From Methanomicrobiales archaeon (GTDB lineage: Archaea > Halobacteriota > Methanomicrobia > Methanomicrobiales > JACTUA01), in NCBI GenBank assembly GCA_015660865.1, contig JACTUA010000002.1, forward strand, positions 60,548 to 124,547: a DNA stretch of 64,000 nucleotides, written 5' to 3'. A program made the position numbers and the translations under genes. Below are positions 6,140-54,478 of this stretch, piece by piece (the stretch's first letter is position 1; each line of letters opens with the position of its first letter). The notes below the pieces were generated by a model. It was not told the origin of the DNA. It did not search any database and saw nothing but the letters and a program-made list of their open reading frames with translations.

Positions 6140-6823
6140 TTATTCCCCGCTCCCCTCGGCCTTCGCCTGCCGCTTGAAGCTCTCGCGAAGGACGATCTCC
6201 TCGATCCCGGGGTAGAACTCGAAGATCTCCTGGATAACCCGGCTCCGCCAGAGGAGCCAGCGCCGGTCGTACATGATCGCCGGCGGGAGAAGGATGGTAA
6301 CCACCCCGCCTTCCACGGTGACCTCCATGGAGCGCTGGGTGTAAAGCTGGATGAGCCCCTGGACCTGTTCCGGCTGTGACTCGATTATCCCCTCCACCTT
6401 GAACGAGTAGGTCGCGGTCTTCCCTGCGAGAGGGTGGTTGAAGTCCACAACGGCCCTTCTCCCGACGATATTCACCACCGTCCCCTCCCTGTTATCGACC
6501 TCCACCGAGGTTCCGATCTGCGGCTTCTCCTCGAACTTCGCGAAGGACACGGACTCCACGCGGGTATCGTCGTGGATCCCGAAGGCCTTCTCGGGCGGGA
6601 CCTCGACCGACCCCTCGTCTCCGGCTTCCTTCCCGACGAGTGCATCGTCGAGGCCGATCACCACATGCCGGTTCCCCACCCGGACGAGGATGGGCCCGTA
6701 CACCGCCTGGGGGTTGTGGATCCCTGCCTCTTTGGCCACCGCCTCGTCGGTGGTATCGAATACCCGCTCACCGATCTTTCCCGTGTAGCTCAGCCTGACG
6801 AACGACCCTTCCAGCACTCGCAT
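6140..6823 (-). CDS. FKBP-type peptidyl-prolyl cis-trans isomerase (long archaeal type)
   Basis: 227-aa ORF with an archaeal FKBP-like N-terminus (VRLSYTGK...VFDTT, LVGKEAGDE) and an insert/C-terminal domain. Confidence 0.7.
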   Translation of the reverse strand: MRVLEGSFVRLSYTGKIGERVFDTTDEAVAKEAGIHNPQAVYGPILVRVGNRHVVIGLDDALVGKEAGDEGSVEVPPEKAFGIHDDTRVESVSFAKFEEKPQIGTSVEVDNREGTVVNIVGRRAVVDFNHPLAGKTATYSFKVEGIIESQPEQVQGLIQLYTQRSMEVTVEGGVVTILLPPAIMYDRRWLLWRSRVIQEIFEFYPGIEEIVLRESFKRQAKAEGSGE

Positions 6824-8147: not shown

Positions 8148-9262
8148 AGAAGAATATCAGACGGGAGCCTAGAAAACCTTATGGCCGGGTCCTTCCAGGA
8201 GCCGGTGAGCTTTCCCTCGAGGGCCAGTCTCCCGAGGAGTTTCTCGGTGCGTGGGCTGACGCTGCGTGGGGAGGTACCTGCGAGGGGGGTTCCCGGGAGA
8301 GGGATGAAGGCATGGAGCCGGACATGGCCGGATCGGACCACCCATCGGATGAGATCCAGGGTGGCCGATTCGTCTTCCTCCGTCTCGAAAGGAAATCCCA
8401 TGATAAGGTCCACGACGGGTGTAAAACCATGATCCCTGCAGAGCTCCACCGCCCGTATCCCGTCTGCGACGGTGTGCCCGCGCCCGATCCTCTCAAGGAC
8501 CTGGTCGCTCCCTGACTGGATGCCGAAGGCGACCCGGGTATTGGCACAGAAGCGGCCGATGAGCTCGAGGGCATCGCCCGTGACGAACTCGGGGCGGACC
8601 TCGTTCGGGAAGGTGCCGAAGTAGATGTTCCCCTCGAGGCTGGCAAGGAGCTTCTCCACCTTCTCAAGCATGGGCCGCCTCCCGTCCGATCCATAGGCAA
8701 GGGCGTTGGGGGAGACAAGCCTTACGTCGCGGTAGCGATGGGCGAAGGATGAGATGGAACCCGTGGAACGGTGCCTCATCACGGAGCCGAAGATCCGGGG
8801 TGTCTGGCAGAAGGCGCACCCGAAGGGGCACCCCCGCGAGATCTCGATGTAGCCCTTCATCACGGAGAAGGGTGGGAAGGCATCCAGGAGGACCGCGTGA
8901 TCCGCGGGAAGGGCACCGTCCTTTGTGGTCACACCGGGGACGGGTCCCTCTCTCCCTTCCTCCAATTGAGCGAGGAGCCTGGGCAGGGTGAACTCCCCCT
9001 CGCCGACCACCACATAATCTGCGTACCGGGCGACCTCCCGGGGGCAGGCGGTTGCATGGGGGCCGCCGACGATGGTTATACAGGAGGCGTCCCGAATCTC
9101 ATCCCGGTAGGAGGGCTCGTTCAGGGAGTTGAGGGAGTAGCAGGTGATATCCGCCCCCGGGACGTCTGCGGGACGGAGGTTGAAACCGTAGAGGGAGCAG
9201 GCCGCGAAGAGGGCGGCATAGGAGTTCCTGGCGGCGTTAATGAGCCTCCAGTTCACCCTCAT
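8144..9262 (-). CDS. B12-binding-domain / radical SAM protein
   Basis: 372-aa ORF with the radical SAM motif RGCPFGCAFC preceded by a Rossmann-like N-domain. Confidence 0.8.
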   Translation of the reverse strand: MRVNWRLINAARNSYAALFAACSLYGFNLRPADVPGADITCYSLNSLNEPSYRDEIRDASCITIVGGPHATACPREVARYADYVVVGEGEFTLPRLLAQLEEGREGPVPGVTTKDGALPADHAVLLDAFPPFSVMKGYIEISRGCPFGCAFCQTPRIFGSVMRHRSTGSISSFAHRYRDVRLVSPNALAYGSDGRRPMLEKVEKLLASLEGNIYFGTFPNEVRPEFVTGDALELIGRFCANTRVAFGIQSGSDQVLERIGRGHTVADGIRAVELCRDHGFTPVVDLIMGFPFETEEDESATLDLIRWVVRSGHVRLHAFIPLPGTPLAGTSPRSVSPRTEKLLGRLALEGKLTGSWKDPAIRFSRLPSDILL

Positions 9263-9693: not shown

Positions 9694-10860
9694 ATGGACG
9701 ACACCGTCTCCAACAACATAGGCAGCGAGGGTGACCTCCTCCAGCTGAAGCTCGAGGTGCAGGAGCTCCAGGCCCAGGTCCTGGACCTCAGGATGAAGAA
9801 CGAGAGCCTCCAGAAGGAGCTCGCCCAGATGCGGAGGGAGAATGCCCAGCTGAAGAGGATGCCCCTCTTTGTCGCGGCCGTGGTTGAGGTGATGGAGAAC
9901 GGGGAGATCTACCTGCGGCAGCAGGGCAACAACCAGGAGTACATCACCCAGGCGAACGAGGAGCTCCACAAGACCCTGAAACCGGGGACCAAGGTTGCGG
10001 TGAACAATGCCCTCTCCATCGTGAAGATCATCGGGAACATCTACGATGCGCGGGTGAGGGTCATGGAGCTCGACGAATCCCCGGACGTGACCTTCGAGAG
10101 GATCGGGGGCCTCAAGAAGGAGATCGAGGAGGTGCGGGAGGCCGTGGAGTACCCGCTCACGAAACCCGAGGTCTTCCGGAGGCTCGGGGTCGAACCGCCG
10201 AAGGGGATCCTCCTCCACGGTCCCCCGGGGACGGGGAAGACCCTGATCGCAAAGGCGGTGGCCCACCAGGCGAAGGCCACCTTCATCCGGATGTCCGGGA
10301 GCGAGCTCGTCCACAAGTTCATCGGCGAGGGGGCGCAGCTCGTGCGGGAGCTCTTCACCCTTGCACGGGAGCGCGCGCCGTCCATCGTCTTCATCGACGA
10401 GATCGACGCCATCGCAAGCCACCGGACCCACGACGGCACAAGCGGGAGCGCCGAGGTCCAGCGGACCCTGATGCAGCTCCTCGCCGAGATGGACGGGTTC
10501 GACAACCGCGGGGATGTGCGGATCATGGCGGCAACGAACCGGGTGGATATGCTCGATCTCGCGATCCTCCGGCCCGGCCGATTCGACCGGCTCGTGGAGA
10601 TCCCGCTGCCCGATGCAGGGGCGAGGAGGGAGATCCTGAAGATCCACTCGGCCCCGATGCATCTCGGGAAGATCGACCTCGAGGAGATCGTGAAGTTGAC
10701 CGAGCAGACCACAGGCGCCGATCTCCAGGCTATCTGCCGCGAGGCGGGGATGAATGCGGTCAGGAGGGGGGCAGACGAGGTGGAGCAGTCCGATCTCCTT
10801 GCCGGGGTCAAAAAAGTGAGGAACGAACCGCCGGCCATGGACAACCGGATGTATACGTAA
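9694..10860 (+). CDS. pan: proteasome-activating nucleotidase (PAN), paralogue 1
   Basis: Contains a coiled coil, an OB region and an AAA+ domain (GPPGTGKT Walker A, VFIDEID Walker B). The C-terminus ...NRMYT fits the HbYX motif. The ATG at 9694 was chosen over the track start at 9538, which overlaps the divergent gene. Confidence 0.9.
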   Translation: MDDTVSNNIGSEGDLLQLKLEVQELQAQVLDLRMKNESLQKELAQMRRENAQLKRMPLFVAAVVEVMENGEIYLRQQGNNQEYITQANEELHKTLKPGTKVAVNNALSIVKIIGNIYDARVRVMELDESPDVTFERIGGLKKEIEEVREAVEYPLTKPEVFRRLGVEPPKGILLHGPPGTGKTLIAKAVAHQAKATFIRMSGSELVHKFIGEGAQLVRELFTLARERAPSIVFIDEIDAIASHRTHDGTSGSAEVQRTLMQLLAEMDGFDNRGDVRIMAATNRVDMLDLAILRPGRFDRLVEIPLPDAGARREILKIHSAPMHLGKIDLEEIVKLTEQTTGADLQAICREAGMNAVRRGADEVEQSDLLAGVKKVRNEPPAMDNRMYT

Positions 10861-20092: not shown

Positions 20093-20592
20093 AGCCCCAT
20101 ACCCTCTCGGTCCTCGTCGAGAACAGGCCCGGGGTCCTCTCCCGGGTCTCGGGCCTCTTCACCCGGCGCGGCTTCAACATCGAGAGCCTCGCCGTGGGCA
20201 CCTGCGAGGAGCCCGACATGAGCCGCATGACCATCGTTGTCGTCGGCGACGACGCACAGGTGGAGCAGGTGATCAAGCAGCTCAACAAGCTGATCGACGT
20301 GGTCAAGGTCTCGGATATCACGGAGATGGAGACGGTGGACCGCGAGCTCGCCCTCATCAAGGTATCCGCCGAGGCAGGTTCCACCCGTGCCGAGGTGATG
20401 CAGGTCGCCGATATCTTCCGGGCCCAGATCGTGGACGTGGGGGCAAAGACCGTGGTCCTCGAGGTCACGGGGGGATCCACGAAGATCGACGCCCTGGAGG
20501 GCCTGCTCCGGCAGTACGGGATCAAGGAGCTCGTCCGCACCGGGAAGATATCGGTGCTCCGGGGCTCAAAGACCGTCAAGTCCTCCAAATAG
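20089..20592 (+). CDS. ilvN: acetolactate synthase small (regulatory) subunit
   Basis: 167-aa ACT-domain protein ([31 protein letters not shown]). It has a 4-nt overlap with ilvB. Confidence 0.9.
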
Positions 20593-20612
20593 GGCGATCC
20601 TTAGCCCCTTTT

Positions 20613-24180: not shown

Positions 24181-24558
24181 ATGACCGGCGAACAGCGGAT
24201 ACAGGCCCTAGGTGCGTGCCCCTTTGCCCGCCTCCTGGGAATGGAGATCGTCGAAACCTGGCTAGGGGGAGCGCGGGTCGTCATGGATACGACGGGGAAG
24301 GAGAACTTCCTCGGGGTCGCCCACGGCGGGGCGATCTTCTCCCTAGCAGATCAGGCCTTCGCCGCGGCCGCGAACCGCGACGGGATCCTCCAGGTGGCGG
24401 TCTCGGTCCACATCCATTACCTCTCGCCAGCCAAAGGGAAGCTCGAAGCCGTTGCCCGGCTCATCGCCGAGACCGACCGGACCTCCCTCATCCTCGTCGA
24501 GGTGAAGTCTGGCGAGCGGGTCGTCGCGACGTTTGAGGGCGTGGCGTACAAGGCGTGA
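24181..24558 (+). CDS. PaaI-family hotdog-fold thioesterase (core; possible N-terminal repeat extension from ATG 24046)
   Basis: The core MTGEQRIQALGACPFARLLGMEIVE...GVAHGGAIFSLADQAF is typical of PaaI/YbgC-like thioesterases (~126 aa). Either ATG 24181 (preceded by GGGGAG) or ATG 24046 is possible. Confidence 0.7.
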   Translation: MTGEQRIQALGACPFARLLGMEIVETWLGGARVVMDTTGKENFLGVAHGGAIFSLADQAFAAAANRDGILQVAVSVHIHYLSPAKGKLEAVARLIAETDRTSLILVEVKSGERVVATFEGVAYKA

Positions 24559-24580
24559 AACGATTTGCAGGTTGTCGCTT

Positions 24581-24793
24581 TGGTGTCCCCACCGTGGGGA
24601 TGATCCATTCCCATGAAACATGGGTCTTCGTTGGTACCGAAAACCATCTGCCACCTCACCCCATACACGAAGGGGGGTGCCCGCGGCGGGGGCGGAAGTC
24701 CCCCGAGAGCCCAACAGTAAAAGAAGCGAACCTCTAAACGATTCTGAAGTGGACATTTTGGATAGGTGAGCGGAGCGAATCCCACAGGAGCAT
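24581..24793 (+). repeat. unclassified GC-rich intergenic element, full copy 1 (core 24581-24764 plus 28-nt box 24765-24792); possible structured ncRNA or MITE-like repeat
   Basis: Aligns with the reverse complement of 42371-42560. The central 60 nt (24664-24723) are 55/60 identical by hand count. It contains the GGGGG-CGGAAGT-CCCCC hairpin at 24688-24704. Confidence 0.7.
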
Positions 24794-24847
24794 CTGACGA
24801 TGGTATTTTATAAACCCTTATATCCCCTCCCGTCCACCGCTCACATT

Positions 24848-25399
24848 ATGACGAGCGCTGAGAAGAAGGCCGTGGAGACGGTGGCAGGCCTCATGGCCCT
24901 CTCCGCGAGGACCGCCCCGAAGGGAAAGGGGCAGGACGCCCTTGTCACCCGGGTCCTCGTGGGGGACGAGGTGAAGGCCCTCTCCCGCGGCATGGATGCC
25001 CTCGGGAAGGAGAAGGAGATCCGTTTCTTCCTCCGCGACGCGAGGAACGTGGGGGCGAGCGACGCCTGCCTCCTTCTCGGGATGAGAAGGGAGCCGACGG
25101 CCGGCCTCGACTGCGGGGCGTGCGGGTTCTCCACCTGCGCCGGGATGCTCATGGAGGACCCGGGGAAGAACCGGACGCTCTTTGCAGGGCCGAACTGCGC
25201 TGTGCGGATGGCGGACCTCGGGATCGCCCTCGGGTCTGCGGTGAAGACCGCATCCCTTCACAACGTGGACAACCGGGTGATGTACTCGGCGGGCGTGACG
25301 GCCCTCTCCCTCGGGCTCCTCGAGGAATGCACGGTGGGCTACGGGATCCCCCTCAAGGCATCGGGGAAGAACATCTTCTTTGACAGGAAGGACCCGTAG
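24848..25399 (+). CDS. DUF2148 / COG4739-like protein with ferredoxin-type Cys cluster
   Basis: Start at MTSAEKK, with an ATTTTATAAA TATA-like box at 24805-24814. Cys motif GLDCGACGFSTCAGM. Family assignment is from memory. Confidence 0.6.
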   Translation: MTSAEKKAVETVAGLMALSARTAPKGKGQDALVTRVLVGDEVKALSRGMDALGKEKEIRFFLRDARNVGASDACLLLGMRREPTAGLDCGACGFSTCAGMLMEDPGKNRTLFAGPNCAVRMADLGIALGSAVKTASLHNVDNRVMYSAGVTALSLGLLEECTVGYGIPLKASGKNIFFDRKDP

Positions 25400-33523: not shown

Positions 33524-33828
33524 GGAGAGGGAGAGGGCGGCTGACGGTGGCTCCCATGGAGCCGCTGAGGAAAGTCCCCCCACCGATCAGGCTCGCAGCT
33601 GCACCCACGTGCAGGTGGCGAGAGCCACGGCAATGACACAGAAACGGCACGGCCCGCCGCCAGCGATGATGCGACGATTTCGTTGAGCGTATCGGCGGGA
33701 AGCGTTGAAACGGTGAACCCCTGCGGGTGCAAGCCAGAAACGGGCGATGGGCTGCCTGGTGCCCGCCCAGGTTTGGCGCAGAGCTGAATGCCGCCATGAA
33801 CAGAAGGGGGCTTACTCCTCCCACTCAC
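33524..33828 (+). ncRNA. rnpB: RNase P RNA (archaeal type A); ends approximate
   Basis: CR-I GAGGAAAGTCC at 33567-33577 and a CR-V-like ACAGAAGGGGGCTTAC at 33800-33815. The P2 strands GGCGG (33536-33540) and CCGCC (33791-33795) pair, and there is a P3-like hairpin GGCTCC-CATG-GAGCC. The region holds only spurious ORFs. Confidence 0.85.
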
Positions 33829-35305: not shown

Positions 35306-37411
35306 ATGACACGGCAGAAGGAGGACGACGAGAAGTGGGCGATCTTCGGCGGGGGCAAGGATCCCGAGGAGCTCGTGAAGGACGGCATCGGGCTCTACAC
35401 CCTTGGGAAGTACACCGATGCCCTGGACCGGTTCAATGCCGCCCTTGAGATCGATCCCGCGTCTGCCACGGCCTGGGTCAACAAGGGGGGGACGCTGACC
35501 GTCCTCGGGAGATACGATGAAGCCCATGCTGCCTTCGAGCAGGCCCTCGTGCTGGACAGCGGGAATGCCCTTGTCCTCCGGAACAAGGGGATCACCGAGA
35601 TCTACCTGGGAAGGGTCGAGGATGCGATCCGCTCCTTTGACCTGGCGCTCGGGATCGATCCCCATGACATCACGGCACTCCTCAACCGCGGCATCGCACT
35701 CGTGAAGATGGGCAGGCACGAGGATGGGATCGAGTGTTTTGACAGGGTCCTCGACCTGGACCTGCGGAACACCATCGCATGGGTCCAGAAGGGGAAGACC
35801 TTCGCCATCATGGGGAGGACGAGGGAGGCCATCGAGCTCTTCGAGAAGTCCCTCGCCCTCAACCCGAAGGACCCGGAGGCCTGGCTCCACAAGGGGCTCG
35901 CCCTCGCAGGCATGGACCAGAGGGACCAGGCCCTGGCCGCCTATGAAAGGGCCCTCGAACTCTCCCCCCATCTGCTCCCGGCCATCACGAGCAAGGGGAT
36001 CCTCCTCATCAAGAAAGGGGACTACGAGGGGACGGTGAAGGTCATGGACCAGGCGATCGCGCTCGACAGCAGCGATACAAACGCGTGGTTCGGGAGGGGC
36101 GTGGCCCTGAAGATCCTCGGGAGGTACGACGAGGCACTCGCGAGCTTCGACAGGGCGCTTGCCATCAACCCGAAGGATGCCTCGGTTTTCCAGGGGAGAG
36201 GCGACATCTATGTCCTCGCCGGGCAGTACAAGGAGGCCCTGGAGGCGTACCTGAAGGCCAAGGAGCTGGACCCGTCCCTGGCAGGGCCCCTGGAGGGGGC
36301 CATCGAGCGGTGTATCGCCTTTGTCCAGTTCAACCTCAACCAGTGGCGGGACCAGGGGCTCTTCCTCCTCTCCCAGGACGAGCCCGTAGAGGCCATCCGC
36401 TTCTTCAACCGGGTCCTCGACGTGGAACCGGAGCAGACCGAGGTGCTTCTCAGGAAGAGCGAGGCGCTGGTGGCCCTGGGGAGGCACGAGGAGGCGCTCG
36501 CAAGCCTGGACCGGCTGGTGCAGCTCAGCCCCAGGGATACCGCCGCCTGGCTGAAGCGGAGCGAGGTCCTCATCCAGCTGGGGAGGCCGGAGGAGGCAGC
36601 CGTCTCGCTCGACGGAGTGATCCGGGAACACCCGGAGATAAAGGACGAGCGGGCGATGGAAGCTTACATCCGGTCCGGAGACGCCATGACCGGAAAAGGG
36701 AACTACACGGGATCCCTCTCAAGTTACGAGAGCGCTCTCTCCATAGCGCCGGCAAACCCCTCAGCACTCGTGGGGAAGGGGCGGGCCCTTGCCATGCTCG
36801 ACCGGCCGGTCGAGGCGGCCTCGATCTTTGACAGGGCCCTCCAGCTCGAGCCAGGGAACATGGAGATCTGGGTCAGGAAGGGGATCGTGCTCGACATGAT
36901 GGGCCGCTATGACGAGGCCATCAGCTGCTACGAGCAGGCCCTCGCCCTCAAGCCGCATGACGTGAATGCCTGGTTCAACCTGGGGATCACCCTCCTCAAC
37001 AAGAGCGAGTTCGAGGAGGCTGTCAAGGCCTTCGACCAGGCCCTGGAGTCCGATCCCAGGAACGCCGAGGCGTACTACAACCGGGGCGTAGCGCTCCTTG
37101 GCCTGAAGAAGTACGAGAAGTCCCTCATGTCCTTCAACAAGGCGGTGGAGATCGATGACACGGTCCCCGAGTTCTGGCACAGCAAGGGATGCGTCCATGG
37201 GATCCTCAGGGACTTCAACGAGGCCATGCGGGATATCGACAAGGCCCTCTCACTCAACCCGAAGTTCGCTATGGCCTGGAGGTCGAGGGGGCTCTTCCTC
37301 CAGTTCCTCGGGAAGCTCGATGAGGCGGTGACCTCATACGAGCGGTCCCTTGCCATCGAGTTCGACCCCGATACAGCGAAGGCGAAGGACTCCATCAGGG
37401 AGAAGATATAA
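35306..37411 (+). CDS. tetratricopeptide (TPR) repeat protein
   Basis: 701-aa ORF made almost entirely of 34-aa repeats (W..KG..L...G.Y.EA...F..AL.L.P). Confidence 0.8.
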   Translation: MTRQKEDDEKWAIFGGGKDPEELVKDGIGLYTLGKYTDALDRFNAALEIDPASATAWVNKGGTLTVLGRYDEAHAAFEQALVLDSGNALVLRNKGITEIYLGRVEDAIRSFDLALGIDPHDITALLNRGIALVKMGRHEDGIECFDRVLDLDLRNTIAWVQKGKTFAIMGRTREAIELFEKSLALNPKDPEAWLHKGLALAGMDQRDQALAAYERALELSPHLLPAITSKGILLIKKGDYEGTVKVMDQAIALDSSDTNAWFGRGVALKILGRYDEALASFDRALAINPKDASVFQGRGDIYVLAGQYKEALEAYLKAKELDPSLAGPLEGAIERCIAFVQFNLNQWRDQGLFLLSQDEPVEAIRFFNRVLDVEPEQTEVLLRKSEALVALGRHEEALASLDRLVQLSPRDTAAWLKRSEVLIQLGRPEEAAVSLDGVIREHPEIKDERAMEAYIRSGDAMTGKGNYTGSLSSYESALSIAPANPSALVGKGRALAMLDRPVEAASIFDRALQLEPGNMEIWVRKGIVLDMMGRYDEAISCYEQALALKPHDVNAWFNLGITLLNKSEFEEAVKAFDQALESDPRNAEAYYNRGVALLGLKKYEKSLMSFNKAVEIDDTVPEFWHSKGCVHGILRDFNEAMRDIDKALSLNPKFAMAWRSRGLFLQFLGKLDEAVTSYERSLAIEFDPDTAKAKDSIREKI

Positions 37412-37433
37412 TTGTCCCTCCTGTTTTCGAGCG

Positions 37434-38030
37434 TCAGCGCTTCCAGATCATCTCAAGACTGTACTCGATGATCTCATCTGGCGATAGGCCTGTATTTTCG
37501 GAGGCGATAAGCGCAAGAATGCCGTTCAGGATCTGTAAAACCATCACGGTATAAAACCTGGGTGGCAAGTCCCGTAGGATCCCCTCACGGATGGCTGCAT
37601 CACTCACTTCGAGCAGCCACCTGATCTCATTATAGGCTTGATGCTTCACCTCATCGCCGATACTCGGGGAGTTGTAGAACTGTTCCATGAACCGGACTTT
37701 TTCAGGGTGAGCGACCCCCCACGCAATATACCCCCGGAGAAACTGTTCGAGCCTCTGCTTGGTCGGGAGGGACCTGTCGTCATTCTTCCGCATGCCTTCG
37801 GCGACCTCCTTCTGGATCGAGAGGTACAGCTGATCGATGAGGGTATTTTTATCCGGGAAGTAATGGAAGAGGGTCCCTGTTGAGACGCGTGCTTCTTTGC
37901 TGATCTGTGATGTCGGGGTCCCGTGAAATCCATGGGATGTGAAAAGACGGAGTGCAGCCTCAAGGATCCGCTCCCGGTTACCGCTTGCCCGATTGGTAGC
38001 CAGGGAGAGATCAGGTATCCCTTGACTCAT
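37434..38030 (-). CDS. TetR/AcrR-family transcriptional regulator
   Basis: The N-terminal HTH is ILEAALRLFTSHGFHGTPTSQISKEARVSTGTLFHYF. ATG 38030 was preferred because it follows GGAGGAG. An alternative ATG lies at 38045. Confidence 0.8.
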   Translation of the reverse strand: MSQGIPDLSLATNRASGNRERILEAALRLFTSHGFHGTPTSQISKEARVSTGTLFHYFPDKNTLIDQLYLSIQKEVAEGMRKNDDRSLPTKQRLEQFLRGYIAWGVAHPEKVRFMEQFYNSPSIGDEVKHQAYNEIRWLLEVSDAAIREGILRDLPPRFYTVMVLQILNGILALIASENTGLSPDEIIEYSLEMIWKR

Positions 38031-38069
38031 GGCTCTCCTCCCCATCCCCTGGCTTGAGATCTCAGATGC

Positions 38070-38109
38070 ATGAATAGATTCATCAATATAGACTGACTAG
38101 TCAATATAG
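38070..38109. promoter_or_regulatory. candidate TetR operator cluster in the divergent TetR/exporter intergenic region
   Basis: Read directly from the sequence. The elements are inverted repeat ATGAAT-AG-ATTCAT (38070-38083), direct repeat TCAATATAG (38083-38091 and 38101-38109) and palindrome GACTAGTC (38095-38102). Confidence 0.35.
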
Positions 38110-38134
38110 CATCTGGGATATTAAAGGCAGCTGC

Positions 38135-40468
38135 GTGGGGAGAGGGGATACCCTGATACAACAGATCTTCGAAGGCATTGCAAATACGATCATCAGGCGG
38201 CCGAAACTGGTTGCTATATTTATCCTTGCCCTCTTCTGCATCGGTTTATACGGTATGACCCTGCTCAGCATGGAGACGGGGTGGAAGACCTATATTGACA
38301 AGGATACTCACGCCGGGGCCATTGAGGAAAAATATAATGAGGACTTCAAGTCGGATACGATTATCCTCATTATCGAAGCCGGTGACCCGCTGAGCCCGGA
38401 AATCCTCACGTATATCGATAATCTCGAAACTGATTTGCGGCAGCAGCAGAATATCAAGAGCGTACAGAGCATAACCGATGTCCTGAAGGTGTACAACGGG
38501 GGAACATTGCCCTCGTCGCGGGCTGGCACGAATCGCATTGTCAATTCACTCCCTGAGAGCACCCGTGCCGTGCTCTATCCTTCCAATGTGCTGACCCTCG
38601 TCCAGATTAAGCTCACGCCACGCTTGTCTGATAAGGTCCAGAAATCCGTCCTTGCGAATATGGGATCGGTCGTGGACGCATCCAATGCACCACCGGGTGT
38701 GAAAGTCGAACTTTCCGGTTCCCCGGCATTCAGCCAGCAGATGAGTGCAGGGCTTACGAGTAACATGGGGATCCTCATCGGGGGGGCGCTCATCCTGATG
38801 ATCATCACGATGGGGATCCTCTTTTCCTATGTGCGCCACCGGTTCATGCCCGTTCTTCTCGTAGCTATCGGGCTTGTAACTGCGCTTGGCCTGATGGGAA
38901 TTGCCGGTATCAGTCTGAACATGGCAGTGATCGGGGCCTTCCCGGTCCTCATCGGGCTGGGGATCGACTATGCGATCCAGTTCCATGCCCGGTTCGATGA
39001 GGAGGCGAGGAAAGGATCACTTGAGGATGCGGTCTTCATGACCGTAACCCGCACCGGCCCTGCGGTCATGTACGCGATGCTGGCGACATCCATGGGATTC
39101 CTGGCCATGAACGTCTCGACCGTCCCGATGATCCGCTCGTTCGGTGTCGTGTCCATCATTGGCATCAACACCTGTTTCTGGGTGTCCTGCATCGGCATGC
39201 CCACGCTCGGTCTCCTCCTGAACTACCAGCCCAAGCCGCAGCAGACCGGAGAATGTTATGCCGTGGGAACGGATGCGTGCGATACCATTATTGACAACCC
39301 GAATAACCGCGCCAAGAACGGGAAGAAGAGTTCCTTCTCTTATGGCAAGTTCCTGACTGACACCTCGGTGAAGATTGCGAAGAACCCGATACCGGTCCTG
39401 CTCGTGGCCGGCCTTATCGCCCTGATCGGGTTCCAGATTGATGCGACCATTCCGGTCGAGTCAAACGAGAACACCTTTGTTCCCTCGGATATGCCGGCCA
39501 AGATCAACATGGACAAGGTCACCCGCGTTATCGGTGCAACCAATACCGCAGACCTGCTTGTCCAGGGCTCCCGCGTAACGGACCTCGATACCCTGCTCTG
39601 GATACAGAAGTTTCAGGACTATGAGCTGACGCATCACCCGGAAATGACCGGGACAACCAGTATCGCCACATATGTCCTCCAGTATAACGGCGGCTCAATG
39701 CCGGAGATCCAGGCAGGAGTCGATGCCGCGCTTGCGAAAATACCAGAGGATACGAAAAAATCGTACCTCAGTGACCCGATGTGCGGGATAATAAGGTTCA
39801 GCACCACATCCCTTTCGATGAGTCAGCAGAACAGCCTGAAAGAGCAGGTTAAAAAGGATATTGCGTTCCTCGAACCTGTCGGGATCTCGGTAGAACCAGC
39901 CGGGGACTTCGAGCTGACGACCAGTCTCTTAAGGAGAATGTCAGAATCGAAGGATACCATGACCCTTCTCGGGTTCATCTTTGTCTTCGCCTTCCTGATC
40001 CTCGTCTACCGGCACCTCCACGCCGTTTCCCCGATTATACCGATCATCTTCGTTGTTGGCTGGAACGCGGTCATGATGTCTATCCTCGGTATCACCTACA
40101 ACCCGATCACGGCGACCCTGGGATCGATGGCAATCGGTGTTGCCGCAGAATACACGATCCTTGTCATGGAGCGGTACGCAGAGGAAGAGGAGCGGCTGCA
40201 TGATCATGTTGCAGCCATCCGGGAGAGCGTCCAGAAGATCGGCACTGCCATCACGGTCTCGGGTCTTGCAACATTCTTCGGGTTCTCCGCGCTCTGCCTT
40301 TCCACCTTCCCCATCCTCAGTAACTTCGGCACCACAACCCTGATTGCCGTCGGGTTCTCCCTGATCGCTGCTATCTTCATCATGCCTGCGGTCCTCTCGC
40401 TTGTCGGCGGGCTGTCCGAATGGCTGGAGAAGAGAAAGACACGCGGTATCCTGAAAACGGTTGAATAA
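38135..40468 (+). CDS. RND-superfamily exporter (MMPL / HAE3-like, 12 TM with two periplasmic-type loops)
   Basis: 777-aa ORF with two repeats of the 6-TM module and large hydrophilic loops. It is divergent from a TetR gene. Confidence 0.8.
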   Translation: MGRGDTLIQQIFEGIANTIIRRPKLVAIFILALFCIGLYGMTLLSMETGWKTYIDKDTHAGAIEEKYNEDFKSDTIILIIEAGDPLSPEILTYIDNLETDLRQQQNIKSVQSITDVLKVYNGGTLPSSRAGTNRIVNSLPESTRAVLYPSNVLTLVQIKLTPRLSDKVQKSVLANMGSVVDASNAPPGVKVELSGSPAFSQQMSAGLTSNMGILIGGALILMIITMGILFSYVRHRFMPVLLVAIGLVTALGLMGIAGISLNMAVIGAFPVLIGLGIDYAIQFHARFDEEARKGSLEDAVFMTVTRTGPAVMYAMLATSMGFLAMNVSTVPMIRSFGVVSIIGINTCFWVSCIGMPTLGLLLNYQPKPQQTGECYAVGTDACDTIIDNPNNRAKNGKKSSFSYGKFLTDTSVKIAKNPIPVLLVAGLIALIGFQIDATIPVESNENTFVPSDMPAKINMDKVTRVIGATNTADLLVQGSRVTDLDTLLWIQKFQDYELTHHPEMTGTTSIATYVLQYNGGSMPEIQAGVDAALAKIPEDTKKSYLSDPMCGIIRFSTTSLSMSQQNSLKEQVKKDIAFLEPVGISVEPAGDFELTTSLLRRMSESKDTMTLLGFIFVFAFLILVYRHLHAVSPIIPIIFVVGWNAVMMSILGITYNPITATLGSMAIGVAAEYTILVMERYAEEEERLHDHVAAIRESVQKIGTAITVSGLATFFGFSALCLSTFPILSNFGTTTLIAVGFSLIAAIFIMPAVLSLVGGLSEWLEKRKTRGILKTVE

Positions 40469-40538
40469 GGACTTTCCTTCACAGATCAGAAGATAGTAGG
40501 CTTGTTACCCTAGGAAAAAAAGATCTCCCTCTCTTTCT

Positions 40539-41087: not shown

Positions 41088-42326
41088 ATGGGCGAGACTG
41101 CCTGGCAGGGCCAGGATCCTCCCAATAACGAGGAGATCTACAAGTACCTCCTGGAGAAGATCTCCCAGCTCGAGAACCGGAACCTGGAGCTCCGCGAGCA
41201 GCTCAGGCAGCTCGAGGTAGAGAAGAGGTACACCGAGACCCAGAAGATCCGCTACGAGCGTGACGTGAGGAAGCTCAAGAGCGAGATCGAGCAGCTGAGG
41301 AGCCCGCCCCTCGTCATCGGCACCATCACCGACGTTGTTGACACGAACCGTGTCATCGTCCGTTCATCCTCGGGCCCGAGGTTCCTTGTCCGTACCTCCC
41401 AGTGCATCGAGCCCGACCAGCTCAAACCCGGCGTCCGGTGCTCGCTGAACCAGCAGTCCCTCGCGATCGTCGAGATCCTTCCCTCGAGCTACGATGCAGC
41501 GATCTACGGGATGGAGCTCGTGGAGTCCCCGTCCGAGACCTACGCAGATATCGGGGGCCTCGGGAAGCAGATCGTCGAGATCAAGGAGGCGGTGGAGCTT
41601 CCCTTAAAGAAGCCAAACCTCTTCAAGGAGGTGGGGATCGACCCGCCGAAGGGTGTTCTCCTCTATGGGCCTCCGGGGACGGGAAAAACCCTCCTTGCGA
41701 AGGCCGTGGCCCACGAGACGAACGCCCACTTCCTCAGGGTGGTTGGCTCCGAGCTCGTGCAGAAGTACATCGGTGAAGGGGCACGCATGGTCCGGGAGCT
41801 CTTTGACCTCGCCCAGAAGAAGGCTCCCTCGATCCTCTTCATCGACGAGATCGATGCCATCGGCGCCCAGCGCATGGACGCAGATACCTCGGGGGACCGC
41901 GAGGTCCAGCGGACCCTCATGCAGCTCCTTGCGGGGATGGACGGCTTCGATCGCAGGGGGGACGTGAAGATCATCGGCGCCACGAACCGGATCGATATCC
42001 TTGACCGTGCCCTCCTCCGGCCCGGGCGGTTCGACCGGATCATCGAGATCCCGCTCCCTGATGCCGAAGGCCGTTACGCTATCCTCTTGATCCACACCCG
42101 GGGGATGAACCTGGATAAGTCCGTTCACCTGAAGGAGGTCGCCCGGGCAACCGATACCAAGAACGGCGCGGACCTGAAGGCCATCTGCACCGAGGCTGGG
42201 ATGTTCGCCATCCGGTCCGAGCGAACAACCGTGACCCAGCAGGACTTCATGGCCGCAATCGAGAAGGTGAGCACCGACTTCTCCAAGCACCAGCTCACCA
42301 GCTCCTACGGGGCCATGTTCGCCTGA
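41088..42326 (+). CDS. pan: proteasome-activating nucleotidase (PAN), paralogue 2
   Basis: 412-aa ORF with a coiled coil, an OB region and an AAA+ domain ([15 protein letters not shown]). The C-terminus is ...GAMFA, with Phe where the HbYX Tyr would be. Confidence 0.9.
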
Positions 42327-42370: not shown

Positions 42371-42598
42371 CAGGTTTCCAATTAAGAATCGGTCCATTCA
42401 GTTGTCGAGTATATTTTTTACTATTGGGCTCTCGGGGGACTTCCGCCCCCGGCGCGGCCACCCCCCGTCGTGTACCGGGATTCGTGGAGGATGGTTTTCC
42501 TGTTATCTGAAGAAACCGAACCTCATTCATGAAAAGGCCTATCCCAACTAGGGGGCGCCACAGCGGCGGAGGTGAGCGGAGCGAATCCCCCAGGAGCG
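42371..42598 (-). repeat. unclassified GC-rich intergenic element, full copy 2 (core 42371-42560 inverted relative to copy 1; 28-nt box 42571-42598 on + strand)
   Basis: The reverse complement aligns with 24581-24764. The box is 26/28 identical to 24765-24792. The hairpin GGGGGACTTCCGCCCCC lies at 42434-42450. Confidence 0.7.
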
Positions 42599-42701
42599 TC
42601 CACAAAGGATCGATTACGGAAGAAGATCGGAAATGCAGGCCGGAAGGTTTCCGTTCCGTCACCTTCATATATCTCTCACGCTCCTATGGTGACTAATTGC
42701 T

Positions 42702-49520: not shown

Positions 49521-49577
49521 CGGAAACCTCCAGGGGGACGCCCGCGCGGCGGGGGCGGTGCCCCCAGGAGCGCTCCC
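49521..49577 (+). repeat. short copy of the GC-rich intergenic element (hairpin GGGGG-CGGTG-CCCCC at 49551-49565)
   Basis: GGGGGACGCCCGCGCGGCGGGGGCGGTGCCCCCAGGAGCGCTCC parallels the central block of copy 1 (24671-24712). It ends with the CCCCCAGGAGCG of the 28-nt box. Confidence 0.45.
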
Positions 49578-49731: not shown

Positions 49732-50631
49732 ATGGCCGACGAAGGTTATACATCATCCACCGTCCAGGGGAGGGAGGTCCCCTGGGACCCGGCACAGCTC
49801 CGGAGGATCAGGGATCACCCCTGCTTTTCTGAGAAGGCCTGCCATGCCTTCGGCAGGATGCACCTTCCGGTTGCACCAAAGTGCAACATCCAGTGCAACT
49901 ACTGCATCCGGGACTTCGACTGCGTGAACGAGTCGAGGCCGGGGGTCACCACCCGCGTTCTTTCGCCAACAGAGGCCATCGAGATGGTAAGAAAGGCCCT
50001 CGAGAAGTTCACCTACATCAAGGTCCTCGGGATCGCGGGCCCCGGCGAGCCCCTGTTCAACGACGAGACCTTCGAGACCCTCCGGCTCGCGAAGATCGAG
50101 TTCCCGAACCTGATCAAGTGTATCAGCTCGAACGGCCTCCTCCTCCCCGAGAAGATCGACCTCCTGGAGAAGTACGACGTGGGGAACGTGACCGTCACCT
50201 GGAACGCCCTCAACCCCGCCACGGGCGCGAAGATCTACTCCTGGGTAACCTGGGAGGGAAAGAGGCTCCACGGCGAGGAGGGTGCCCGGATCCTCCTCGC
50301 GAACCAGCTCAAGGGGATAGAGGAGGCGGTGAAGCGGCACATGATCGTGAAGGTGAACACCGTGTACATTCCCGGTGTGAACGATATGGAGATCCCGGAC
50401 ATTGCAAAGAAGGCCTCAGAGCTCGGGGCCTACACCTTCAATGTCATCCCCCTCATCCCCCAGTATAAGTTCCGGGACGTGAAACCGCCCACTCCTGCCG
50501 ACAAGAGGAAGATGCAGGACGAGTGCTCGAAGTATATCAGGCAGATGCGACACTGCCAGCGGTGCCGCGCCGATGCCATCGGCCGGCTGGGGCACGACGT
50601 GCAGGGCTGCCTGTACAGCGGCGGCGAGTAG
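49732..50631 (+). CDS. nifB: NifB-type radical SAM protein (stand-alone SAM domain)
   Basis: HPCFSEKACHAFGRMHLPVAPKCNIQCNYCIRDFDCVNESRPGVT closely matches the NifB signature. Start at MADEG (49732). The upstream part of the track ORF covers the repeat element. Confidence 0.8.
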   Translation: MADEGYTSSTVQGREVPWDPAQLRRIRDHPCFSEKACHAFGRMHLPVAPKCNIQCNYCIRDFDCVNESRPGVTTRVLSPTEAIEMVRKALEKFTYIKVLGIAGPGEPLFNDETFETLRLAKIEFPNLIKCISSNGLLLPEKIDLLEKYDVGNVTVTWNALNPATGAKIYSWVTWEGKRLHGEEGARILLANQLKGIEEAVKRHMIVKVNTVYIPGVNDMEIPDIAKKASELGAYTFNVIPLIPQYKFRDVKPPTPADKRKMQDECSKYIRQMRHCQRCRADAIGRLGHDVQGCLYSGGE

Positions 50632-50678
50632 ACGGTCCCCCTCGCCACCTCCTTCTTTCCCGGGTTCATCGGAGAACC

Positions 50679-54361: not shown

Positions 54362-54461
54362 TCCAAAACCCTAAATAGGGCGTCGCTTATCCCCTATGTC
54401 CGCACCGGAGATCCCCGGTCTTCTACCGGGAACCGGCCTTCCAAAACCCTAAATAGAGCGT
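54362..54461 (+). promoter_or_regulatory. duplicated 22-nt promoter-like box TCCAAAACCCTAAATAGRGCGT (54362-54383 and 54440-54461)
   Basis: Two copies, 21/22 identical, lie 78 nt apart. Each contains a TATA-like CTAAATAG. The proximal copy ends 18 nt upstream of the hisF GTG. Confidence 0.4.
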
Positions 54462-54478
54462 TTCTCATTCCGGTACAT

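Follow-up and report, generated by a model that had tools for sequence, protein, structure and literature searches.

What is the DNA that two intergenic regions of a Methanomicrobiales archaeon share in opposite orientation, and how did it come to lie in both? The regions belong to contig JACTUA010000002.1, and the window referred to here is the whole stretch of 64,000 nucleotides (nt) that was analyzed. Copy 1 lies in the 289-nt gap between the stop of a thioesterase (4HBT) gene at 24558 and the DUF2148 start at 24848, a gap that had been read from the sequence and is borne out by public gene calls. The original prediction aligned positions 24581–24764 end to end with the reverse complement of 42371–42560, and proposed either a structured small RNA (sRNA) or 3' untranslated region (3'-UTR) element, or a repeat resembling MITEs (miniature inverted-repeat transposable elements) or repetitive extragenic palindromes (REPs). 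The two stretches are probably members of a lineage-specific family of non-coding, palindromic, extragenic repeats that is mobile and is of the REP/REPIN/BIME or MITE kind. It is this half of the proposal that dispersed copies, arrays and filled or empty sites speak for, while the structured sRNA or 3'-UTR element was left unsupported.

The repeat pair and its family

The longest inverted repeat found in a whole-window search is formed by 24639–24722 (+) and 42416–42499 (−), which match over 84 nt at 86% identity. The 60-nt core of the two copies is 93% identical over 59 nt, close to the 55 of 60 that had been counted by hand, and outside this core the copies align with indels and at lower identity, also as described. 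The 27-mer GGGGGCGGAAGTCCCCCGAGAGCCCAA occurs exactly twice in the window and in none of 100 shuffles, with zero occurrences expected, so the resemblance is real. An explanation by chance, or by a one-off segmental duplication of intergenic DNA in this genome, could appeal to there being only two clear copies in 64 kb. It is refuted by the zero expectation and by the more than 100 additional copies that other genomes and metagenomes contain, and its probability is practically nil.

These further copies were reached in several ways. Exact-protein matches were found in GCA_049519435.1, a peat-derived Methanomicrobiales metagenome-assembled genome (MAG; contig JBEKQT010000003.1), and in several peat metagenome contigs with identical or nearly identical intergenic regions (one has a single-base indel). 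A degenerate core pattern searched against a genome collection found at least five loci, all in one MAG, CAZKEV01 ("uncultured Methanomicrobiales archaeon"); the number of genomes is undercounted here, as the pattern demanded CCCCCGAGAGCCC and most units carry CCCCCAAGAGCCC. The genes of CAZKEV01 are 87–90% identical at the DNA level to those of the window, which makes it a sister species. A second pattern gave 128 matches in 97 metagenome stretches. The profile hidden Markov model (HMM) built from the pattern-found stretches and searched with nhmmer detected 168 copies or fragments in 116 arrays at 36 distinct genomic sites, in the sister MAG and in peat and sediment metagenomes. Seventy-five full-length units are less than 96% identical to one another, and 64 full units make up the family alignment. 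The density is 3–6 units per contig of 100–800 kb; a 792-kb contig, which shares its sample of origin with the window's species, carries six. An origin in a virus or provirus was rejected, as two scans of viral contigs gave 0 copies. The family is lineage-specific to uncultured Methanomicrobiales of peat and sediment.

Within the window, the profile HMM matches one complete unit, one 5'-truncated unit and two weak fragments, at 24796–24765 and at approximately 49530–49577. The ends of units were set from near-identical paralogous units at unrelated loci. The features are as follows:

42405–42601 (−): copy 2, a complete unit of 5' arm, centre, 3' arm and A-rich tail; profile match 42604–42415 to model positions 2–187, E=5e-43; 5' end GGACGC at 42601
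42538–42601 (−): 5' arm (arm A) of copy 2, GGACGCTCCTGGGGGATTCGCTCCGCTCACCTCCGCCGCTGTGGCGCCCCC..GGGATAGG; more than 90% of columns conserved in the 64 units; holds the reverse complement of GGTGAGCGGAGCGAATCCC
42477–42537 (−): copy-specific centre of copy 2; its columns are unalignable between non-orthologous units
42426–42476 (−): 3' arm (arm B) of copy 2, GGTACACGACGGGGGGTGGCCGCGCCGGGGGCGGAAGTCCCCCGAGAGCCC, approximately the reverse complement of arm A, from the repeats and the family alignment
42405–42425 (−): A-rich 3' tail of copy 2, AATAGTAAAAAATATAC..., with the A+T content given below counted after GAGCCC in isolated units
42376–42391 (−): putative vestigial junction, CGATTCTTAATTGGAA, of a following unit (arrays have GATCMTTCGTGGAC), from comparison with array spacers
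24574–24732 (+): copy 1, a 5'-truncated unit; profile match 24574–24722 to model positions 41–186, E=1.4e-30
24574–24606, 24607–24662, 24663–24712 and 24713–24732 (+): residual arm A, centre, arm B and tail of copy 1
24739–24754 (+): putative vestigial junction of a following unit, CGATTCTGAAGTGGAC
24765–24796 (−): inverted fragment of arm A (model positions 4–37), lost from the 5' end of copy 1; exact 19-mer, BLAST identity of 96% over 28 nt and the weak profile match 24796–24765
49533–49577 (−): probable solo arm remnant, GGGGGACGCCCGCGCGGCGGGGGCGGTGCCCCCAGGAGCGCTCC on the plus strand, the reverse complement of arm A without its loop; weak profile matches on both strands (E 0.3–0.6) and hand comparison with the consensus arms
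50632–50678 (no strand): unoccupied site, a 47-nt gap between convergent genes, filled at loci L033 and L016

Judged from these matches, copy 2 is intact. Copy 1 starts at model position 41, and the piece that it lost is found 42 nt downstream in inverted orientation, so that copy 1 is a rearranged relic. This inverted fragment accounts for the presence of the 19-mer GGTGAGCGGAGCGAATCCC on the plus strand at both 24765 and 42571 (42571–42589), even though the element itself is inverted between the two sites. Positions 24765–24793 had been taken as a continuation of the element and are instead this fragment. In addition, since copy 1 lacks the first part of arm A, an alignment of the two copies clipped approximately 40 nt from arm A of copy 2. 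Thus, the repeat that had been aligned stands, whereas the limits assigned to copy 2 (42371–42560) do not, as they omit these first nucleotides and include 3' spacer. The 3' flanks of lower identity (24723–24764 and 42371–42414) appear to be the A-rich tail followed by a vestigial junction motif, CGATTCTKAAKTGGA, resembling the GATCMTTCGTGGAC that precedes units in arrays. The stretch 49533–49577 is GC-rich, 45 nt long and like a single repeat arm without a loop; it is probably a solo-arm remnant.

Copy 2 has counterparts at the same site elsewhere. Its centre is approximately 47% identical to that of the same-site unit in L037 and of low identity to that of the same-site L015 unit. Upstream of the orthologous copy in L015 (approximately 6260–6330) is an insert of about 65 nt with CCTATCC..., an inverted arm A fragment, and the copy is followed by the start of a second unit, an arrangement similar to the surroundings of copy 1 in the window.

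Anatomy and dispersal of the units

Each unit is approximately 200 nt long, GC-rich and imperfectly palindromic, and consists of a conserved 5' arm, a copy-specific centre, a conserved 3' arm and an A-rich tail. In the 64-unit alignment and end profiles, the consensus of arm A is GGACGCTCCTGGGGG, a loop with two subfamily forms, and then CCCCCGCCGCTnnGGCGTCCCCC..GTGRGGATAGG, while that of arm B is GGTACACGRCGGGGGRTGCCCGCGGCGGGGGCGGWAGTCCCCCRAGAGCCC. The centre spans 60–75 nt, often contains GATC or GGATCC and is unalignable between non-orthologous units. The tail begins with the conserved AAYAGTAARAYGAA... and is A-rich, with approximately 70–75% A+T over about 22 nt. The near-invariance of arm B is partly imposed by the search pattern; the conservation of arm A is not.

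The arms are approximately 50–60 nt long and are inverted copies of each other, each with short internal palindromes. As arm B is close to the reverse complement of arm A, the profile matches both strands of some units, and the fold of a full unit is a single long hairpin with interruptions. Here, an outer stem (GCUC.UGGGGG/CCCCC.GAGC) is followed by an 11-bp stem (GCCCCCGCCGC/GCGGCGGGGGC) and a 10-bp stem (GGCGUCCCCC/GGGGGAUGCC). This long pairing of the 5' arm with the 3' arm is the dominant predicted fold, in place of the small local hairpins on which the original prediction had centred. Full units fold as RNA with −80 to −107 kcal/mol, and the mean z-score of 75 units relative to dinucleotide shuffles is −3.5 for the forward strand and −3.05 for the reverse strand. 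It is the family mean alone that lies clearly below the shuffles: copy 2 as a full unit has z = −1.5 as RNA and −0.2 as DNA, and at the coordinates used originally the values are unremarkable, from −1.0 to +1.1 on all four strands. Two of the hairpins first noted, CCCATG-AAA-CATGGG and one closed by GGT...ACC, are present in the copy-specific centre and have no counterpart in the family alignment. Most of the substitutions described as hairpin-preserving likewise sit in this non-conserved centre, and the change of GCC-CGC-GGC alone is cleanly compensatory.

Units occur singly or in head-to-tail arrays of two or three with spacers of approximately 50 nt and a period of about 235 nt (234 with 2.6 copies in L065, by Tandem Repeats Finder). 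The first unit of an array is often 5'-truncated and the last one 3'-truncated. By eye, 5'-truncated units are about twice as frequent in the hit list as 3'-truncated ones, and arrays typically run truncated, full, truncated. Some units hold inserts, of approximately 110 nt in the arm A loop of L033 (1980–2120) and of approximately 70 nt after GATAGCC in L082 (about 8190–8260), L047 and L089. These inserts may represent another small repeat that is nested in this one.

Evidence for dispersal comes from units at unrelated sites. Units L020_677 and L026_369 are approximately 95% identical, centre included, and have unrelated flanks; the similarity has its exact start at GGACGC and does not extend past AAGATGAA. 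What disperses is one discrete block, of which the 5' end is sharp (GGACGC) and the 3' end is defined. Filled and empty sites are found as well. No unit occupies 50632–50678 in the window, the gap between two convergent genes whose ends are at 50631 and 50679; in L033, it contains one unit. The same site in the sister MAG (L016) holds one full unit and a 3'-arm fragment, an apparent third match being the opposite-strand match of the full unit. Further, L095 is filled where L098 is not, and L056 has three units where L090 keeps a footprint of approximately 25 nt from the outer ends of the array. The number of units differs by one to three at many orthologous sites. No target-site duplication was detected, as no direct repeat flanks L020_677, L026_369 or the filled sites L016, L033 and L095, and a TTAC-type target was looked for and not found.

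The sites themselves are of a particular kind. Genes are present on both sides of 29 of them, and 17 of these gaps (59%) are convergent, nine co-directional (six with the unit in sense, three in antisense) and three divergent; one of the 29 site representatives overlaps a called gene. Taken together, copies are situated for the most part between the 3' ends of genes, local multiplication of units gives rise to head-to-tail arrays, and copies decay by truncation, inversion and deletion. In L065 and L097, a three-unit array between a TPR gene and an HTH gene occupies the position of 37411–40533 in the window, where two genes absent from these relatives are found: a 203-aa open reading frame (ORF) on the minus strand and a 777-aa MMPL/SecDF-like ORF.

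Coding content was also sought. The claim that the stretches are non-coding holds for the family: most units have no open frame, no reading frame is conserved across units, and the lengths of units modulo 3 are evenly distributed among the three residues. Protein coding was rejected for want of a consistent frame, the 101-aa ORF over copy 2 being an artefact of GC richness. There is no arm pair enclosing an ORF among the loci examined, nor a parent insertion sequence with the same ends. A gene associated with the family was rejected too, because the 1306 neighbouring ORFs, when clustered, yield ABC-transporter ATPases and permeases and syntenic housekeeping genes. A recurrent insert of approximately 370 nt between units does hold a small gene, flanked on both sides by units in several related populations (L053 2593–2963, L055 4748–5117, L067 3882–4252, L078 308–672, L081 319–698 and L041 4116–4432). 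From recognition of the sequence, we take its product to resemble ribosomal protein L40e.

Explanations for the family

The units could alternatively be genes for structured small RNAs, or RNA elements of 3'-UTRs, with a conserved arm scaffold and a variable middle, active as RNA on the strand equivalent to the plus strand of copy 1. Conserved arms around a variable centre would suit this explanation, as would a GNRA-like GGAA loop in the invariant hairpin and the six sense versus three antisense copies in co-directional gaps. Covariation was assessed in the 64 units by column shuffles, which related sequences can beat without any structure. Under a model of local hairpins, 96.2% of cells are paired, with a covariation score that none of 500 shuffles attains. 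This signal resides largely in columns 179/185, which are CG in 57 units and GC in six, with no single-sided change. These columns are the double change from GCC-CGC-GGC to GGC-CGC-GCC that had been noted between the two window copies; this change is real and recurs in six of 64 units, and all six carriers belong to the same arm A subfamily. The long hairpin between the arms has 92.8% of cells paired, and its compensatory change does not exceed the shuffles (218 of 500). Moreover, an unbiased mutual-information scan is led by subfamily markers that are not Watson–Crick pairs (for example, C-G to A-A and A-A to G-G). Single-sided changes go mostly to G:U on the proposed strand (U:G 18 times at columns 72/176, 15 at 22/206 and 7 at 18/210), and in the local model G:U outnumbers A:C by 97 to 20 cells. 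This excess stems from a few subfamily columns and dwindles when pairs are counted instead of cells (12 versus 7, or 12–14 versus 7–11), so it is not decisive for the choice of strand, and the argument from G:T pairs that had favoured this strand is weak. The reverse strand folds as well as the forward one, copy 2 is antisense to both adjoining genes, and arm B invariance is in part built in by the search. Rfam 15 gives no match above noise for copy 1, copy 2 or the canonical units of L017 (E up to 10), in agreement with the earlier failure to recognize an RNA family, and an identity with an Rfam family was rejected on this basis; at gathering thresholds, the whole window yields archaeal RNase P RNA only, and that elsewhere. 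A promoter belonging to the units was rejected as well, since upstream of 23 isolated units no box, whether conserved or AT-rich, recurs at any fixed distance. Finally, truncated and inverted copies and a variable copy number at orthologous sites would be unusual for RNA genes. With covariation weak overall, a structured sRNA is possible without being supported, and RNA genes or elements are an improbable account of the family.

A related possibility is that the repeat is a host cis-element between genes, such as a barrier or terminator for convergent transcription, a stabilizer of mRNA 3' ends, or a platform for chromatin or topology proteins as proposed for bacterial REP/BIME, with mobility being secondary. 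The preponderance of convergent gaps and the scarcity of divergent ones would agree with this, as would the stability of the RNA hairpins, the conservation of the arms at all copies and between species at the same site, and the apparent irrelevance of orientation, which is expected of a palindrome. The same enrichment would arise, however, if gene 3' ends were just the places where an insertion does the least damage. Close relatives differ freely in the gain, loss and size of sites, and the majority of the window's convergent gene pairs lack a copy. Archaeal transcription termination uses oligo-T tracts, and the unit has none longer than 4 on either strand. In addition, we know of no binding protein. 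Host function as the primary explanation is quite unlikely.

The family is best explained as a mobile palindromic repeat, and several observations weigh against this. No transposase or related autonomous element was found near the copies, and a crude regular expression for the HUH-Y1 motif gave no credible match in 671 kb around them (up to 10 kb each). The arms are inverted repeats, but their outermost termini differ, with GGACGCTCCTGGGGG at the 5' end as opposed to TGGGCTCTTGGGGG as the reverse complement of the 3' end, and beyond the 3' arm there is a tail of approximately 20 nt; terminal inverted repeats of the classical sort would not look like this. The "empty" sites are not clean excisions, as the sequence between shared flanks differs. 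Arms that are approximately 90% identical across copies with unalignable centres are not predicted by simple neutral decay of a selfish repeat, and this points to some selection on the arms. The CG-to-GC swap and the local-hairpin score that no shuffle reaches hint at constraint at the level of structure. Orthologous copies at one site do keep their centre, which indicates that centres are old and diverged rather than hypermutable while the arms are held; a hypervariable-centre mechanism was rejected for this reason, low centre identity being a property of non-orthologous units. Candidate causes of the arm conservation are a mobilizing enzyme that copies none but intact arms, which has been argued for REPINs, concerted evolution among copies, or a host function of the hairpin at gene 3' ends.

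As a mechanism for the mobile repeat, the element would be non-autonomous and would be moved in trans by an enzyme that recognizes the folded arms. A single-strand mechanism of the HUH/Y1 type (RAYT or IS200/IS605-like) would fit both the hairpins and the missing duplications. Either the copying of intact arms only or concerted evolution would keep the arms conserved. If transcription reads into the unit from upstream genes, its long hairpin may serve as an RNA structure at 3' ends as well.

Comparison with known systems places the family near several of them. MITEs, which are reported in approximately 20% of archaeal genomes (PMC11602168), are similarly small, non-coding and non-autonomous, with inverted-repeat arms, intergenic locations, lineage specificity and sites that are filled or empty among relatives. 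Unlike MITEs, the family has no target-site duplication, no outermost termini that are inverted copies and no parent insertion sequence found with the same ends; it is GC-rich instead of AT-rich, forms regular head-to-tail arrays and has arms far better conserved than the centre. Elements derived from IS200/IS605 (PATEs) and TnpB omega-RNA regions share with it hairpin ends, absence of duplications, asymmetric ends and conserved sequence past the hairpin foot on one side. Their two end hairpins are not mutually complementary, however, and there is no tnpA or tnpB near the copies and no Rfam match to RNA families of the IS605-orfB or HEARO type. The ERIC/IRU sequences of enterobacteria are long imperfect palindromes of approximately 130–200 nt that lie in intergenic regions which are transcribed; an orthologous site may or may not carry one, and internal insertions give size variants (compare L033 and L082). 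They have no sequence relation to the family, belong to another domain of life and are not known to form regular tandem arrays.

The closest likeness in architecture and function is to REPIN and REP-BIME elements of bacteria, which are mobilized by the HUH-Y1 protein RAYT (TnpA-REP). These are also extragenic and multi-copy without target-site duplication, are built from inverted conserved arms that each contain a short palindrome and that enclose a spacer of poor conservation, with the whole unit folding as a hairpin, and are found in clusters or tandem arrangements, persisting at the same sites in related lineages beside decayed singlets. A highly variable spacer between conserved flanking REPs is described for REPINs (bioRxiv 10.1101/2021.07.10.451892) and fits the family. 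The differences are a unit of approximately 200 nt versus 100 nt, arms of 50–60 nt versus 25 nt, arrays that are head-to-tail and not alternating, and an asymmetric A-rich tail. Furthermore, a REP foot carries a conserved unpaired GTAG or CGTC tetranucleotide (PMC3733652) and the family has no such tag on both arms: the G-GACG-C start of arm A reads CGTC on the other strand, and the outer end of arm B, GAGCCCAAYAG, has no equivalent. On account of unit length, head-to-tail arrays, the A-rich tail and, above all, the lack of an identified RAYT gene around the copies, the family was not filed as REPIN. REPINs are reported as not detected in archaea (bioRxiv 10.1101/2021.07.10.451892), and a survey of HUH-Y1 proteins found only the IS200-type subclass there (PMC6006769). 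It is conceivable, if unlikely, that this family would be the first REPIN-like system in Archaea, namely a vertically persistent population of hairpin repeats in which a domesticated single-strand enzyme (HUH/Y1-like or other), encoded elsewhere in these Methanomicrobiales genomes, maintains the arms; at the 3' ends of genes, the arms might have a second role as a functional structure of RNA or DNA.

Consequences and other repeats of the window

The repeat accounts for a number of intergenic gaps that are unusually long in these genomes; two such gaps lie in this window. As the number of units varies between close relatives, the sites could serve as markers for typing uncultured methanogens of peat and sediment. 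Bacterial hairpin repeats of the REP/REPIN type have been studied in depth, and in archaea none is described in the literature consulted here. With its conserved arms, free centre, tandem arrays and lack of target duplications, the family is a concrete place to seek an archaeal counterpart together with its mobilizing enzyme. Should the family instead be another MITE-like repeat, it would be a nuisance for annotation and assembly and a source of genome rearrangement, as in the array that replaces two genes at the position of 37411–40533 in relatives.

Separate from the family, the archaeal RNase P RNA lies at 33525–33826 (+) as a full-length match to RF00373 (211.9 bits, E=8e-62). Three other repeats were noted. 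A 300-nt direct repeat of 72% identity connects 10063–10362 with 41511–41810, the second copy being inside a gene like that of the AAA+ proteasome-activating nucleotidase (41088–42326); the gene at the first copy may be a paralogue. Six copies of an 81-nt repeat at 35723–37300, inside the 701-aa ORF 35306–37411, start 102, 204 or 987 nt apart, exact or near multiples of 102 nt, and are consistent with protein repeats of the TPR type. Lastly, the 32-nt repeat TCCAAAACCCTAAATAGGGCGTCGCTTATCCC occurs at 54362–54393 and 54440–54471, 78 nt apart and 84% identical, with a weaker third copy at 20576–20607.

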